This document shows positions 17,323-50,062 of a DNA stretch of 64,000 nt, piece after piece. Numbering within the stretch: position 1 is the stretch's first letter; each line of letters begins with the position of its first letter. Source of the DNA: Mustelus asterias. Taxonomy: Eukaryota. The stretch spans positions 930,001 to 994,000 of the forward strand of contig NW_027590143.1 in the NCBI RefSeq assembly GCF_964213995.1, read 5' to 3'. The notes under the pieces were generated by a model that ran no database searches, had not been told where the DNA came from, and saw only the letters and a program-made list of their open reading frames with translations. The translations under genes were made by a program, and so were the position numbers.

Positions 17323-17433
17323 CTCAAAATAGCCACACCCTGGCCGTCATCATGACATTGAAGACAATGCTCTTGAAAAACAAAATTCTTAGCCCCATCA
17401 CCGTCAAAGACAAAAAGTTCACCCTCAGTCGAT
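17323..17433 (-). CDS. TRDC: TCR delta constant exon 3 (transmembrane/cytoplasmic)
   Basis: cag|AT CGA... gives (D)RLRVNFLSLTVMGLRILFFKSIVFNVMMTARVWLF*, with the alpha/delta-type TM basic residues R and K. TGA at 17326-17324 is followed by G|gtaagg. Confidence 0.93.
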
Positions 17434-17875: not shown

Positions 17876-17938
17876 CGTTTTCCGTGTCACTTGATTCTGT
17901 CAAGGAATCACTTCGACCTGTAGGGCATTTAGGTTTAT
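17876..17938 (-). CDS. TRDC: TCR delta constant exon 2 (connecting peptide with interchain Cys)
   Basis: cccttccag|AT AAA CCT AAA TGC...AAC G|gtatgt. 63 nt, phase 1 to phase 1, (D)KPKCPTGRSDSLTESSDTEN. Confidence 0.88.
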
Positions 17939-20659: not shown

Positions 20660-20971
20660 CAATTTCAGCTGTGGGCGGGATGTTTACTGAGTAATTTCGA
20701 TTATCGTGAAATGCCTTGCACGTGATGTTTGGCGATTTCTCGGATTGGCGGAAAGAGAGAAAACCCGAGCTCCTGTAATTCCCGCTCTCCAATAGGACAC
20801 TGGATCTTGTCACATTGACCTCCTGGCCCAATCCCGTGTACAGGGAGAGCATGATTGCGTTGGGCGAGAAGTCCGAGGCCAAGCATACTGCAGCTGTGTC
20901 GATGCCGGTGGCTCCCCGTGGCACTGGCGGGTAAAAGACGCTCAATTTAGGCTCCACCGGGCCTTTCGCCT
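20660..20971 (-). CDS. TRDC: TCR delta constant exon 1 (Ig C1 domain)
   Basis: ttttcag|AG GCG AAA...ATT G|gtaagt, 312 nt, phase 1 to phase 1: (K)AKGPVEPKLSVFYPP...AVCLASDFSP...NVTRSSVLLESGNYRSSGFL...NITCKAFH. Two domain cysteines. Assigned to delta because an upstream D segment is present and the TM is delta-like. Confidence 0.9.
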
Positions 20972-28362: not shown

Positions 28363-28422
28363 TGGGTTCTACAGTGAGTTTGGTTCCACTGCCAAAGATA
28401 AGCTTGGTGGTTGCATAGTTTG
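28363..28422 (-). CDS. TRDJ: TCR delta J segment (C-proximal), functional
   Basis: NYATTKLIFGSGTKLTVEP + A|gtaagt. 12-RSS: CACAGTG (28423-28429), 12 nt, ACAAAATCG (28442-28450). Confidence 0.95.
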
Positions 28423-29203: not shown

Positions 29204-29259
29204 TTGGTATAACGGTCACCTGGGTGCCGCTGCCGAACGTTAATTTACTGTAGCCCAGT
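29204..29259 (-). CDS. TRDJ: TCR delta J segment with open frame but defective RSS heptamer
   Basis: LGYSKLTFGSGTQVTVIP + A|gtgagt. The heptamer position reads AACAATT (no CAC), with a nonamer-like TAAGAAACC at 29278-29286. Confidence 0.85.
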
Positions 29260-34855: not shown

Positions 34856-34916
34856 TTGGCACAACAGTCAACTGGGTGCCGCTGCCAAATGTGAGCTTCA
34901 CGGTATCATCATAATG
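34856..34916 (-). CDS. TRDJ: TCR delta J segment, functional
   Basis: HYDDTVKLTFGSGTQLTVVP + A|gtgagt. 12-RSS: CACAGTG (34917-34923), 12 nt, ACATAAACC (34936-34944). Confidence 0.95.
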
Positions 34917-38725: not shown

Positions 38726-38784
38726 TGGGCTCCACAGTGAGTTTTGTCCCTTCGCCAAAGACAAGCTTCACAATTCCACCATAG
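38726..38784 (-). CDS. TRDJ: TCR delta J segment, functional
   Basis: YGGIVKLVFGEGTKLTVEP + A|gtaagt. 12-RSS: CACAGTG (38785-38791), 12 nt, ACAAAATAT (38804-38812). Confidence 0.95.
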
Positions 38785-40446: not shown

Positions 40447-40509
40447 TGGGTTCCACAATCAGCCTGGTTCCATTGCCGAAGATGAGCTTTGCAGTCTCTC
40501 CATACGTTA
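40447..40509 (-). CDS. TRDJ: TCR delta J segment (D-proximal), probably functional
   Basis: TYGETAKLIFGNGTRLIVEP + A|gtaagt. 12-RSS with variant heptamer CACACCC (40510-40516) and nonamer ACAAGATCC (40529-40537). Confidence 0.92.
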
Positions 40510-40633
40510 CACACCCGTTGATTCCATAACAAGATCCATTGTGGTGCTGGGAGTGTGCTGTTGAGAGAGTTTGGTGTTCTCCTGTGGGCTGTGAGGTTAT
40601 TGCACGGGCGTGAAGGGAGATTCAACTACTGTG

Positions 40634-40648
40634 GTCCCACGATATCCC
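40634..40648 (-). CDS. TRDD: TCR delta D segment
   Basis: GGGATATCGTGGGAC, open in all three frames (GISWD/GYRG/DIVG). 5' 12-RSS: CACAGTG 40649-40655, ACAAAAACT 40668-40676. 3' 23-RSS: CACAGTA 40633-40627, GCAATAACC 40603-40595. Confidence 0.93.
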
Positions 40649-42835
40649 CACAGTGATACATGCCAGCACAAAAACTCTTCAGCAGCTGTTGCTGCTACTG
40701 CTGTCGCATGTATCATCTCAGCTGCGACAGCAGAATGTCGCTGATTGATGCAACTATCAATTCCACTCCCATGAAGCAACGCACCCGATTAAAACCGTCC
40801 ATGTGATTTCACATGAGCACTGGCTAAAAATATTTGGCACAGCACACCTGTAGGGGTTAGATAACCAGCAGGATGTTCTGCGGTTGGGGTAATTTTTCAG
40901 GAAAATTGTTAAAAGAACGGAGGTAAGGAAGCTGAGGTGGAAAAGTGGGCGGGGATGAGGGAGGGGGGATTGGGGGAGGGGGGGGCGGGCAGGCGGGAAG
41001 GTGAGGAATTAACCTCGAGAATTCCCCAGCTCAGGAAGAAGGCAATTGAAGGCACAGTTGCGGATTGAGGGGCGAAAAGAATTAGGGGCACTTTCAAAAG
41101 GCAAAAACTATAGAAACAACAGATTGAAAAAGAACACAGGTTGGAGACGATTCCAGAGACGTTGAGAAGGGCATCCATCGAAGGATTTGATGAGAAGTAG
41201 GTGAATCGGTTTTGGTTTTATTTATCATCTCAAGGGGTGAGGACTTCGCTCACATCCCTAATTGCCCTGAATTGAATGGATTGTTTAAAGTTTATTAATT
41301 AGTGCAACAGCTGGGCTTACATTAACACTGCAGTGAAGTTACTGTGACAATCCCCCCGTCGCCACACTCTGGCACCTGTTCGGGTACACTGAGGGACAAT
41401 TTAGCATGGTCAAGGCACCTAACCAGCACGTCTTTCGGACTGTAGGAGAAACCGGACAATTGTTAGATCATTCCAGATGGCAAGCCATTGCTGTGCATCT
41501 GGAGTCAGATCAGGTAAGCTTGGTTCTGTTATCCAGCCTCAAAACCTTGACTCAATTTTCTCTCCACAGATGCTGGGATTTTCCAGAATTTTCTGTTTTT
41601 GCTTCGAGCCTAGAGAACCCTTCGTCAGAGCTAGCGAAAGGTCATCTAGACTCGAAACGTGTGCACTATTCGCTCCCCACAGATGCTGTCAGAGCTGTGA
41701 GATTTTCTAGCATTTTCTGTTTGTGTTGAGGAAGTTCTGCAATATCACTCATCAATGTTTAGATGAGGTATCAAATAATCTGCCTTGTCTGTTGGGCGTT
41801 TAATGTCCCGTGGCTGATTTGAAAGGGGAGCTGTCGAGTTAGTCAAAGAGTCATAAACTTCTACAGACCTTCGGCCCATCTTGTCTGTGCTAACCATCAA
41901 ACATGTAACCATTCCAATCACATCTTCCAGCTCTTGGTCCATAACCTTGTATATAATGCGTGTCAGGTGGTCATCGAAATGCTTCTTTCATAGCTGGAAA
42001 ATCCTGGGGGCAACCATTGACCAGAAACCTTTAAGAGTCAACCATATTGCTGTGTTTCTGGAGTCACATTTAGGCACATTTCCTTCCCTAAAAGGGCATT
42101 AGTAAACAAGATGGGTTTTGACAACAATCGACAATGGTCTCAATGGTTTTTTTATTTACTTCAAATTTCATCATCTGCCTTGTTCGGATTTGAACTTGGG
42201 TACCCGCCCGACTTAGTAACCTGGGTCCTTGAGTCGCTAATCTAGTGTCAATACCAGTGGGCTATCAACTGCCCATATCCCAGTATTGAAAACCCACAAC
42301 CATCAATGAGCGGACACATGTTGTTAGGTCAGGATGAGATCAGAAATGGAGATGAAGTCCTAAGTGATGTTCTTCCTATAAACCTTCTGTTCTACCAGGA
42401 TGGAAGATTCCATCACTCAACCCCTTTTCGACATGTTTCCACCTCCCTGCAATTAACACATAATATTTACAATGTTGACATTGTAAATACTGAACGTACT
42501 CCCCTTTGAAAATCACTAACGAACCGGCTCCCCCACTCTAACTATTTGGCTCCTGAACAACCAGAAACGAGTGCAAATCATTTAAATCTGCGTGATTTTG
42601 ACACCTGCCTTCCTGCCAATGCAATTATCTCTCCTTGGGTATTCCATATAAATACGAATTTGGATGGCGAATATTCTGTGTCAGCTCAGTTTCTCAAGAC
42701 TCCACACATAATTGCAGGATGTTATTCTTACATAGCTTTGCTCTGAAGGGTGAGACATGGATGGGTGTTGGATGTTTCCTGAGTGATGACTTTCGTTGAG
42801 AATGGAATATATTCAAGGTGTTCATTATTCTCGAC

Positions 42836-45100: not shown

Positions 45101-45139
45101 CACAGTGAACAGAACGCACTCATCAATGCAACAGAAACA
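45101..45139 (+). other. Orphan 23-spacer recombination signal sequence, inverted relative to the V-gene RSS
   Basis: CACAGTG (45101-45107), exactly 23 nt, ACAGAAACA (45131-45139). Confidence 0.6.
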
Positions 45140-45705: not shown

Positions 45706-45744
45706 GGTTTTTGTACAAGTCTGGATGTGATCTATATCAGTGTG
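45706..45744 (-). other. 23-RSS of the IgH-like V
   Basis: CACACTG, 23 nt, ACAAAAACC (consensus nonamer). Confidence 0.95.
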
Positions 45745-46049
45745 CTGCTGTGCACAGTAATACGTCGCGCTGTCTGCTATTGTTAACGTGCTGACAGAGA
45801 GATCGAATACGTTGTTGGAAAGGTCCTTGGATGGAATGAATCGTCCACCAAGCTGCTGATTGTAATCGTTTCTATTTTCATTATTGTACCAAAGCAGCCA
45901 TCCCAGTCCCGTCTCAGGACTGTGCCGGTACCAGAGCATGGTGTAGCTCCCAAGATCAAATCCGCTGGTTTTACAGGTTAGGGTCAGGGATTGCCCTACT
46001 ACCCCCGTTTCTGCCTCTGGCTGGGTCAACACCACATCCGACTGGACGC
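45745..46049 (-). CDS. Ig heavy-chain-like V exon in the TCR delta locus (VH-delta/TAILV-like)
   Basis: ttagcag|GC GTC CAG TCG: (C)VQS-DVVLTQPEAETGVVGQSLTLTCKTSGFDLGSYTMLWYRH...GLGWL...GRFIPSKDLSNNVFDL...DSATYYCAQQ. The motifs LTCKTSGFDL, RF..SKD.SNN.F and YYCA are typical of shark IgM VH. The frame is open and the 23-RSS is intact. Confidence 0.92.
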
Positions 46050-46168
46050 CTGCTAAAGGGAAGAAACAATAATTATGGTGAGGTGAATCCAGTTTGTGTC
46101 ATTCCACAGGGAATGATTGATGTCAAACAGAAACTGTGCAAATTTTCTGATAATATCCAACTACTCAC

Positions 46169-46220
46169 AAGATAAGATGACAAGGAACACACAGAGAAAT
46201 ATCGCTAGCATCATGCTCAT
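46169..46220 (-). CDS. Leader exon of the IgH-like V
   Basis: ATG AGC ATG ATG...TCT T|gtgagt gives MSMMLAIFLCVFLVILS, phase 1, followed by a 119-bp intron. Confidence 0.9.
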
Positions 46221-46892
46221 GGAGCCTGTGTTAAATTAGACACCCCGACAGAACCCCCAGTCACTCACTGAACAAAGTACTAAGCTGATCGTTAGATTCT
46301 GATCGTCAGTCACAAGGATTTGTGCAATGGGAGGGGGAAGGCCTTGACAAGACAACGACTATTGGCTGCCTGGAATGGAAGACGCTGTCATCACATGATG
46401 ACACCCACCTTAATACAGAATGGGCGTCAACAAATCTTCATTGTTAATTAAGTCTGCACAGACTCACTGTTACTCACGATGAATTGAACCCTATTCCTGA
46501 TGTTCCCGTTAACATTACCATTTGGAATATTGTTTCACTAGGTGACCGATTTCATGTTGCTTTAGCCTCACTGTGTTAGCTGTGCACTGACATAAGCAGG
46601 GTGTCCTCCATCGTCACCCTCCTGACATCGAAAGCAAATATATTGTGTGTAAGGTCATTGGAAGCAGTGACTCTTCCTTCAGACTCCTCACTGTTGGATA
46701 TTTAGCTGGTCCTGCCTCTTCCCGGTACTCTTCTGGTTCTAATATGGCCACTGGCCACTGAGGTCGAAGCAACTGGTTTTGGAGGCTAGGGGCAGGAACT
46801 ACCCTGGGAGCCCCATCTCTGCCTCTGACTGCGTCAGCGATACTTCCAACTTGACATCTGTTAAAGTTAGAGAGACATCAGTCATGGTGAAG

Positions 46893-47187
46893 GGCGACAC
46901 GGTAGCACATTGGTTGACACTGCTGCCGCATTACACGACAGAACAGGTTTCGATTCCAGCCTTGGCTGACTATATGGAGTTTGCACGGTCTCCCCGTGTG
47001 TGTGTGAGTTTCCTCTCGGTGCTCCGGTTCCCTCCCATAGTCCAAACATGTCTGAAGTTTTGGTGGATTGGCCATGCTCAATTACTCCTTAGTGTCCCAA
47101 GACGTTTAGATTGTTTGATTGGCGAAGTTAGGGGAAAGGGCGGGTTGTGGATCTGGGTGCAGACTTCTGCACTGTAGGGATTCTATG
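46893..47187 (+). mobile_element. tRNA-derived SINE (HE1/V-SINE-like)
   Basis: Head, body and CTGCACTGTAGGGATTCTATG tail. Confidence 0.75.
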
Positions 47188-49703
47188 ATGACTCCTGCCG
47201 GTTTAACACCACTGAGTTGAGGCACAGTGGAAAACACAAACACACACGCACACACGAGGCATTGGGAGAATTGTCAACCCACTCTGCATATGGAATCCTC
47301 CAATAGACTGATTAACATTGTTGGCTATGGCCAAGAAAAGGAGGAGAAATGGAATGGATTTCATGCATGTTGTAAAGTTTGCATAAAAGGGCAGGAATCA
47401 CCATCGAATATCGCAGACTGAAAAGATCCTTTACTCACCAATCTGTGTCACAGATGTGTGTGTGTGTGTTGAAGACACGATCATTGGTTCTATGCACTTG
47501 TGGGTTATTAATAATCGTTTCAGAGGGAATACAACATCCCTGCATCTGGCTGTCCAGCTCTTTTAGACTTTTATACGTTTCCGTGAGATGCCCTTTCATT
47601 CATCTAAATTTCAGTGAACATTGGCCCAGTAGACTCAATCACTTCCTCATATGACAATCGTTCTCTCCCAGGAACCAGTCTGGTCAACCATTGCTGCAAT
47701 CCCTCTATGGTATGTATATCCTTTATTAGATAAGGAGACCAAACTGCATGCAATACTCCAGGTATGGTTTCTCCAAGGCCCGATACAGCTGTATGAATAC
47801 ATCCTTGCAATGAAGGCCAACATAGCATATGCCTTTCTAACTACTTGCTGACGCTGCATTCTTGCTTTCAGTAACTGGTGTGGGAGGACACCAATGTCCC
47901 TTTGCAACAACAATAGTATTCTTGCAAGAACAATACCAGAACTTGCAATAAATAACAATCTTTAGAACCATTAATAATGGTGCCTTCTCTATTAGCAGCA
48001 AGTGCCAAGGCTTGAATCATTTCAATGTTACAAATGTTCATTTATGCAGCAAATTTGATTCCTGTCTCTAGCACCTCGAGATTCGCCCCTTACCCTTAGC
48101 AATAGTGGCACTCAGTCGGATCACGCCAGCAATATGCTAAGGGAATAAGTGCAATAGTCTTCGTGAAAACAAAATGACTCTTGTCCTTGTGCTGAGGACC
48201 TCACACACATTGGTTCCAGCTGTACTGTGTGCAGAGGCCGAGATGGCCGATGGACTGACACAACGTTGATTAATCCAATCCTACCCAAGCCTGGTAAATA
48301 ACCTGTTTGTGTTACAATCCACATTGAAAAAAGGGTCACTGAGGTGCCTCATATCCAACTGTGCGGAACGATCAGCAGCTGTGCTTAGCTTGGATTTAAA
48401 TTTATCCACAGCAGCAGCGGGAAGCGGCATCAATTACAATGTCAATGGTCATGATGATAGTGACAAGTAATTGACAGAACTCACTGCGCCGCGCACACAG
48501 ACACATCCTAACACACACAGGCACACACACACACACACACACACAGAATCCTGTTTTCAATCCATGGGCATTGTACTGGGGAAAGTCAAGGCGACGCAAA
48601 TCCTTGGCCGACATTGCCACTGGCCGCTGTCCACTGGATACGAAAGGCGACATTCCAATCTGCACGCAAGAACTGTGGTTGAGGATCACCAAACACCCAG
48701 CTATTCTAGTCGAATTTCCCAGCACTTGGTCCGTAGACTTGCATGCTACGGCGTGTCGAGTGTTCACCTGAATGCTGCTTAAATGTTGTGAGGGGTCGCC
48801 GTCTCATCAGGCAGTCAGTACCAGATTCCCACCACCCATTGGATGAAAGTGCTTTGACCCCAAATCACCACTAAATCTGCTGCCCCCTACCTTCAATTTA
48901 TGTCACCTCGTTATTGACCTCTCTACTAAGGGGAAATGTCCCTTCCTAGTCACAATATCTATATCCCTCGTAATTCTGTAGACCTCAATCAGGTCCCCCC
49001 CTCCCCCCCCCCCCCACATCTCTGCTTTAAGGAAAACAACCCCAGCCTAACCAGCCTCCCTTCATAGCTCATACGATCTCGCCCAGGAAACATCCTGGTG
49101 AGTCTCCTCTGCACCCTCTCTAGTGTAATCACATCCTTCGTAGTCTCTCATCATGTCTAAAAGTCTGCGTGTATCCATCTGTTGTTCAGAGCTGATCACA
49201 CTGTGCCTTCCTGCTTATTTGTATGTTCATCACCTGTAAGTTAGTTTCAAGTAAGCTAGTCACCATGTATCCATTTTGCCTGCTCGTCCAGCAGTTGATG
49301 TGGCTCCAAACTATCTAACGTCTTAGTGTCCGTGTATATGTTTTGTATGTTAGTCTAGCTCTGTCTATGAATCTATCCATTTAACTATCGAGTGACCATT
49401 TATTTGTTTTCTGTTAATTCATCCGTTCGTGTGTCTATACATCTATCTAACTGTCCGGTGACCATATTTCTGCCTTGTGTGTTAATGCATCAGTTCCTGT
49501 GTCTATCAATCTATCTTGTTAGCTGTCCAGTGACCATATATCTGTTTTATGTGTTACTGAATCAGCTGATGTGTCTAAGAATCTAATTCACATCTGTTTG
49601 CCTGTCTATCCCTGTGTTGATGCTGCAATTCTACAACACCGACATTGGACAATGGGACTACACATCATGCCGAGACCTTCCATTGCCTGGGAGAGGAACC
49701 TGC

Positions 49704-49742
49704 AGTTTATGCAGAGACTGCTGCCCGGAATATGCCAGTGTG
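49704..49742 (-). other. 23-RSS of the TCR-type V
   Basis: CACACTG, 23 nt, GCATAAACT. Confidence 0.9.
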
Positions 49743-50062
49743 TGTGTTTAAGACGCAGAAGTATTTCCTGGAGTCCTCAGCTGTCACGGGTGCAACTGTC
49801 AGACTGATGCTTCTGTAAGTTTTGCTCAGGGAGGAGGAAAAGCGACGCCTGGAAAATGTGGCGCTGTCGCTGAAACCGTCGGTGCAGCGGACGACAATAT
49901 ACTCGGGACTCCCTCCCATGGCTGGGTGGAGAGGTTCCCGGTACCAGACCAAGCAAGCCCTCTCCACCTCTGTGTAGGAGCAGGTGATTGTCGTGGTGGC
50001 TCCCTGCTGGACCATCACTTCTGCCTCTGGCTGGTGTATGACTGCGGATGCAGCCAGGCTAC
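49743..50062 (-). CDS. TRDV: TCR alpha/delta-type V exon
   Basis: cccttcag|GT AGC: (G)SLAASAVIHQPEAEVMVQQGATTTITCSYTEVERACLVWYREPLHPAMGGSPEYIVVRCTDG...RFSSSL...ISLTVAPVTAEDSRKYFCVLNT. Canonical C, WY, D.x.YFC, open frame, 23-RSS. Confidence 0.88.

Follow-up and report, generated by a model that had tools for sequence, protein, structure and literature searches.

According to published accounts, the TCR loci of sharks are organized as translocons and their Ig loci as mini-clusters (PMC12227049, PMC6795676). In elasmobranchs, IgH-like V segments named TAILV or Ig-TCR-delta V are located just upstream of D-J-C-delta (Deiss et al. 2019 as cited in PMC12227049), and in these systems one C-delta lies directly upstream of TCR-alpha. 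Table S1 of PMC12227049, which contains gene models on selected scaffolds and no count of C-delta, has rows for TAILV, IgWV-TCRD and Ig-TCRd V beside C-delta in catshark and stingray, and epaulette shark is also among its rows for TAILV or Ig-TCR-delta V. The catshark order given there is TAILV, IgWV-TCRD and then TCRA; stingray has six Ig-TCRd V, one C-delta and then C-alpha. Nurse shark possesses NAR-TCR, with a NAR V-D-J and a supporting V upstream of D-delta, as well as IgHV-TCR-delta chimeras, in which IgM V-D is joined to D-delta-J-C and which are described, in the accessible text of these papers, as somatic and formed on a translocon (PMC12227049, PMC5931798, PMC6795676).

Here we analyzed a 64-kb stretch of Mustelus asterias DNA (the window), which contains no N; C-numbers below denote contigs or scaffolds of the assembly, and positions lacking such a prefix refer to the window. 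The predicted features of the window are listed in Table 1. As in the TAILV systems, an IgH-like V is located just upstream of D-J-C-delta and a second VH-like segment precedes it by about 2 kb. This likeness is one of layout and of catshark and basking shark models. As in nurse shark, a NAR-TCR V-D-J and supporting V belong to the unit; they are located just outside the window at C111:997172-1000083. In contrast to the single C-delta next to TCR-alpha of the TAILV systems, however, M. asterias has 19 C-delta units that lie apart from the alpha J arrays. The reading that we consider probable is that the V stems from an old shark IgH-like family kept beside D-delta, that delta was duplicated into mini-clusters and that RAG formed joints in the germ line.

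Table 1. Predicted features of the TCR-delta unit in the window
Feature	Position	Strand	Remarks
Relics upstream of V	46594..50060 (approximate limits)	minus	second VH-like pseudogene fragment and interrupted TCR-type V
Leader exon, IgH-like V	46169..46220	minus	ATG at 46220; 52 nt
Leader-V intron	46050..46168	minus	GT-AG, phase 1
IgH-like V exon, delta-dedicated family	45745..46049	minus	open frame; Cys, Trp, YYC present
23-RSS of V	45706..45744	minus	nonamer perfect, heptamer 1 mismatch
D-delta 5' 12-RSS	40649..40676	(+)	RSS scan
D-delta coding segment, 15 nt	40634..40648	minus	
D-delta 3' 23-RSS	40595..40633	minus	RSS scan
J-delta 1	40447..40509	minus	weak 12-RSS; J type same as catshark C-delta model
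J-delta 2	38726..38784	minus	good 12-RSS
J-delta 3	34856..34916	minus	good 12-RSS
J-delta 4	29204..29253	minus	damaged RSS here, heptamer without CAC; intact in type B units
J-delta 5	28363..28422	minus	good 12-RSS
C-delta exon 1, Ig domain	20660..20971	minus	score 240 to catshark C-delta model
C-delta connecting-peptide exon	17876..17938	minus	
C-delta transmembrane exon	17323..17433	minus	Arg and Lys, then stop

The original prediction of a complete leader, intron, V and 23-RSS at 46220-45706 on the minus strand was confirmed, the ATG and the end of the nonamer being its limits. The heptamer CACACTG (45744-45738) has one mismatch with its CAC intact, and is separated by a 23-nt spacer from a perfect nonamer (45714-45706). 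A strict RSS scan of the 64 kb gave six sites, five of which are located at V, D or J; RSS placement is therefore not due to chance. The V was expected about 5 kb upstream of D-delta in the same orientation, and the distance to D-delta (40676-40595) is indeed 5.03 kb. Six-frame motif scans and sequence inspection gave no JH or Ig C exon in this interval, again as anticipated. The same V-D linkage, at 5.0-5.5 kb, is found again on four other contigs, which makes a misassembly of this interval unlikely. The proposed ability of the V to join D or J by cis deletion agrees with the 12/23 rule. A plus-strand 23-RSS-like site is located between V and D (45101-45139), also in two close copies, and no adjacent segment was seen; it was rejected as a partner of the V because a 23-RSS cannot pair with the 23-RSS of the V. 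More complete versions of both upstream relics occur in type B units, and upstream of the type B IgH-like V at L127 (C173:106.1k) there is an open, long-branch TCR-type V, whose counterpart in the window is interrupted by about 3 kb.

The IgM-VH hallmarks attributed to the V were found in the leader, FR1, CDR1 and FR3 and were not found in FR2. Over 46 nt the leader with its donor site has 74% identity to the leader and donor site of an IgM VH, to which it is, on sequence grounds, homologous; no promoter homology to an IgM VH was detected beyond leader and splice sites. FR2 reads WYRH, as against WIRQ or WVRQ in the IgM VH of the M. asterias genome, and is TCR-like by this motif, which catshark and basking shark relatives share. 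The V matches Pfam V-set and its best solved relatives in the PDB are mammalian VH. The Atlas ranking, a lead only, placed antibody heavy chain first and TCR V at ranks 26 and 28, and a protein search among chains of similar length gave only two VH matches (49-52%).

Trees were built from 47 of the 74 extracted V rows, then from 32 rows after 15 long-branch or near-duplicate rows had been dropped, and then from 41 rows with other species added. VH rows were labelled IgM or IgW by motifs that we take to be diagnostic, with C domains observed for few clusters. The V was located on the VH side of a 100/99 branch, in agreement with its predicted antibody-like nature, and both the trees and an identity of 25-33% place it outside the alpha/delta V families, so that a conventional TRAV or TRDV identity was rejected. 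Its identity is at most 58% to IgM VH (56-58% for the closest) and 38-42% to IgW VH. A 99/96 branch sets IgM, IgW and elephant shark VH apart from the V family and its catshark, basking shark and bamboo shark relatives. By these comparisons the V represents a lineage distinct from IgM and IgW VH and common to other sharks, the monophyly of the family depending on the root; AU tests did not reject a grouping with IgM (p = 0.23) or IgW (p = 0.32).

An IgM VH of an IgH mini-cluster was also rejected: the IgM VH at C71:7.06 Mb is followed by D1, D2 and JH within about 1.5 kb and then C-mu, which are absent after the window V. The segment is of IgH V type, stands before D-delta without IgH D, JH or C of its own and carries a 3' 23-RSS. 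The idea that it is dedicated to delta held throughout the assembly, where 14 of 14 copies precede a D-delta 12-RSS and none is located in an IgH cluster. The suggestion of a possibly undescribed family did not hold, since in models from catshark and basking shark a V with 65-67% identity is found on C-delta. Among 1.84 billion representatives, the best single-V match came from catshark, in a chain that has C-delta, the J1 type of the window and a V of 65% identity; in the basking shark model the V (67% identical) precedes J and C-delta. Matched by name, species and scaffold size, the catshark model XP_038644089.1 is presumably the row 'IgWVTCRD' of the table mentioned above. Nurse shark records were not among the named matches in the protein searches. 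An IgH-like V next to D-delta is a known kind (TAILV or Ig-TCR-delta V) recorded in other sharks; the novelty is the organization of the locus, with its multiplied delta units.

The constant gene follows a D, its exon 1 scored 240 against the catshark C-delta model versus 76 and 93 against two C-alpha exons, and in NCBI models it is spliced to double V domains of the NAR-TCR type. It is therefore assigned, by sequence, to C-delta of the ordinary isotype. The closest named proteins are from Mustelus asterias itself (83-98%), and a PDB search with C gave no informative match.

The original prediction spoke of the TCR-delta locus, but the window unit is only one of 19 C-delta units. The C-delta exon has 19 matches in the assembly (83-100% amino acid identity), none of which contains a stop, corresponding to 14 distinct C exons. 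Among 40 matches scored, the IgH-like V has 14 full-length copies, six of them 93-100% like the window V and eight 68-72%. A layout survey of all 19 C-delta units and three V copies without C gave a common plan: NAR V-D-J, supporting V, relics, IgH-like V, D, three to five J and C-delta. At C71:7.06 and 11.0 Mb an IgM cluster is located directly upstream of the delta unit. Most delta units are on unplaced contigs.

In an alignment of 5903 columns, divergence thresholds of 0.2%, 0.5% and 1% divide the 19 units into 17, 12 and 10 groups, respectively. Even if every locus were represented by two alleles, 10 loci would be required to account for 19 units. Divergence among three units that share a scaffold is 2.1-3.9%. 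It is most improbable, in our estimate, that these copies are haplotypes, false duplications and mosaics in a hard-to-assemble region that harbors no more than one or two ordinary delta loci with a V of TAILV type. Near-identical pairs do exist (C850/C71c with 2 and C106/C123 with 5 differences over the same columns), the 10 kb downstream of C138 are 99.94% identical to the window contig, and other sharks and rays have at most one C-delta row among the models of Table S1 in PMC12227049. Yet ten groups remain at 1% divergence, some units are about 10% apart, haplotypes would give two versions and not 14 distinct C exons, and RAG1 is single in the assembly. In addition, runs X2, X3 and X4 (three samples of one organism) contained three D-J1 types per run, matched by eye to assembly types, and run X5 from another organism contained three D-J1 variants. 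If each run represents one diploid animal, three types imply a minimum of two loci, which is an independent though weak bound. At least ten of the delta loci are likely to be real; some units may be alleles or assembly mosaics, which would inflate the count. No report of multiple C-delta genes in a shark was found in the literature searched, largely open-access papers, and the accessible part of PMC3964593 contains nothing on C-delta number. At L165-L166, contig C973, which has no C-delta, is 100% identical to C173 for 11 kb; the match then ends at a point between J2 and J3 that is not near an RSS.

C-alpha with a J array occurs twice in the assembly, at C546:138k-242k and C71:18.37-18.42 Mb, one array containing well over 100 J segments. 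J-alpha arrays were found only there in a genome-wide search with 40 of 2031 candidates scored. The C-alpha regions are 15% apart, and the two represent either two loci or deep haplotypes. The 155 kb that precede the J-alpha array of C71 are free of gaps and contain no J-delta or C-delta. On C546 a 200-N gap precedes the array, and the sequence upstream of this gap matches C71 3-4 kb before the first J; there, too, J-delta and C-delta were absent before the array. Two D-delta-like relics are present in that region (C546:113.6k and 120.8k), their 3' signal apparently shortened; they are possibly the remains of a nested delta locus. C546 has no C-delta, and the nearest C-delta on C71 is 6 Mb from C-alpha. 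For 11 of the 19 units the next 10 kb downstream, a short range, were searched and contained no J-alpha, and downstream of the window unit alpha/delta V in both orientations are found without J-alpha. The canonical TRA/TRD translocon, with one D-J-C-delta in or beside TRA, was not encountered, with some doubt left by the unplaced contigs. Among six weak C matches a hidden conventional C-delta was rejected for all but C16:64432087: those on C546 and at C71:18.42 Mb are C-alpha, two on C13 are of light-chain type and one on C16 is another Ig C domain.

The assembly contains 21 D-delta sites, of which 12 are unjoined, 7 form coding joints and 2 perfect signal joints. A supporting V is joined to D in C850, C401, C436, C119 and C96, whereas the V joined to D-delta on C71b is a conventional one. 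On C138, an intact VH of IgM type is followed by its spacer and then by a complete D1 that is fused to a trimmed D-delta, a 12-RSS and a 23-RSS being kept; VH and spacer match the C71 IgM cluster (99.1% over 4.8 kb). C138 has the composition of the nurse shark chimeras, except that these are described as arising somatically on a translocon, whereas M. asterias has a C-delta per unit and one IgM D1-D-delta joint in the assembly. All joints at D-delta are V-D or D-D, with little or no N addition, which likewise characterizes shark germline joints (PMC2193156). One identical supporting V-D joint is shared by C436, C119 and C96, units that are 0.7-3.5% apart, and is therefore older than their duplication. 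The proposal that the window V occupies the most favoured position was weakened by these counts: none of the 14 copies of its family is joined versus 9 of the 21 D-delta sites, which are joined to other partners, although these are small numbers that include no T-cell data.

For the joints present in a single copy we infer germline timing. The alternative that the multiplication is real but the joints of C138, C850, C401, C71b, C71d and C110b were formed somatically in T cells and entered the assembly from single long reads, leaving only the three-unit joint as germline, seems unlikely. It would fit the near identity of C850 to unjoined C71c (99.87% over 23.7 kb) and of C401 to C173 (99.6%), as well as the fact that none of the contigs listed for four runs (32 of 144 pieces) bridged the C138 D1-D-delta joint. 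Pieces at that position stop at the joint and continue as unjoined D or unjoined IgM D1; short-read contigs show presence only, and letters particular to C138 were absent at several sites, so the unit is perhaps not in the samples. On the other hand, somatic delta joints of nurse shark contain many N nucleotides (PMC5278385) and those found here little or none. C138 moreover has no unjoined twin (its D-J stretch is 94-98.7% identical to any other unit), reads from a single cell would be expected to lose to germline reads in an assembly, and IgM clusters of the same assembly are joined too. L153, L160, L162 and L091 are such IgM-type clusters, apparently germline-joined, with the V directly before JH or a 23-RSS.

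Preservation of the units bears on whether the V and most units are passengers of segmental duplications driven by IgM and NAR cassettes, with the V rarely or never used, which we regard as very improbable. Three of the 14 V copies are broken and the upstream neighbors are relics, as passengers would be; the heptamer mismatch is present in five of six close copies, the J4 RSS of the window unit is damaged, and duplicated blocks reach at least 55 kb past C-delta in three units. Opposed to this, all 19 C exons are open with splice sites kept, a TM exon follows every one of them, 11 of the 14 V frames are open and the family has been retained beside C-delta in catshark and basking shark. Moreover, the seven substitutions between the window V and the C90/C110b/C71d copy are all replacing and six are located in CDR1/2, a concentration with p = 0.002 for CDR limits set by eye after the sequences had been seen; the excess of replacing changes alone is not significant (p = 0.17). 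Versus type B copies pN/pS is about 0.5, and the frameworks of the family are under purifying selection. Together, CDR-focused change and the low ratio suggest selection on the window V family, and the V likely works as a TCR-delta V.

The 12/23 rules permit V-to-D deletion and D-to-J joining. On the preferred reading, that of a kept V family in duplicated, partly germline-joined mini-clusters, RAG would delete the 5 kb between the V 23-RSS and the D 12-RSS, D would then be joined to a J segment, and after splicing of the product to C-delta the chain would pair with TCR-gamma. Through segmental duplication of the 3' end of the delta locus, a single C-delta would have given rise to ten or more Ig-style mini-clusters that are interspersed with IgM clusters and have lost the nested position before J-alpha. 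RAG acting in germ cells would have fixed some joints, so that D-delta is now joined to a supporting V in some units and to a conventional V or an IgM VH-D1 in others. A more far-reaching proposal has about an even chance of being correct: that smooth-hound TCR-delta passed from a nested locus to 10-19 mini-clusters among IgM, is still being rewired by germline RAG and, with a fixed IgM VH-D1-D-J-C-delta unit, represents a living intermediate of the route that has been proposed for TCR-mu and VH-delta.

Marsupial TCR-mu shares with these units the IgH-like V, a germline-joined element, delta ancestry and tandem duplication of whole clusters, the repeated clusters being an analogy only, and germline RAG joining has been named as one possible origin of TCR-mu (PMC2275272). 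TCR-mu differs in having its own C isotype and a fully joined VDJ, as against ordinary C-delta and V-D or D-D joints in M. asterias, and the lineages are not orthologous. Avian TCR-delta2 is, like the M. asterias units, a VH-delta-D-J-C cluster outside TRA (PMC5278385). In newt, as in M. asterias, delta is separated from alpha, TRA occurs as two loci and there is a pre-joined V, but newt delta is described in the accessible text as lacking D and VH-delta (PMC12698447). Extra clusters number one in duck and one or two in newt versus 10-19 here (PMC5278385, PMC12698447). Germline-joined shark Ig clusters (PMC2193156) and catfish TCR alpha/beta (PMC6170632) likewise display RSS-precise trimmed joints with little N, whereas the M. 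asterias joints involve TCR-delta, connect separate gene types and keep signal joints.

If delta is indeed present in ten or more clusters, this would break the divide between TCR translocons and Ig mini-clusters; pre-joined pieces in inherited DNA would add an antibody-style layout not usually described for TCR-delta. A single animal would then allow three questions to be tested: how exclusion works in a T cell with so many delta loci, whether deletion of delta is required in alpha-beta cells, as PMC12698447 asks, and whether hybrid Ig-TCR genes can arise from joining by germline RAG, as PMC2275272 asks. Since each unit can be recognized by its C-exon variants, conventional RNA-seq would suffice to trace a transcript to its cluster.

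Several minor observations concern the NAR cassettes. L110 (C110:113696-114760) contains a signal joint between the D-delta 12-RSS and a NAR V signal, and the NAR V coding end is fused there to an apparent J signal, a hybrid joint. L169 (C122:392464-399051) is a NAR cassette with an internal inversion in which the D 12-RSS abuts the 23-RSS of the supporting V. At C111:997097-997158 and in other units the supporting V is followed by two to four tandem 23-RSS with 61-nt spacing. Finally, a degenerate TG-rich satellite of about 30 kb (C111:1,001,000-1,030,000) is located directly upstream of the NAR V.
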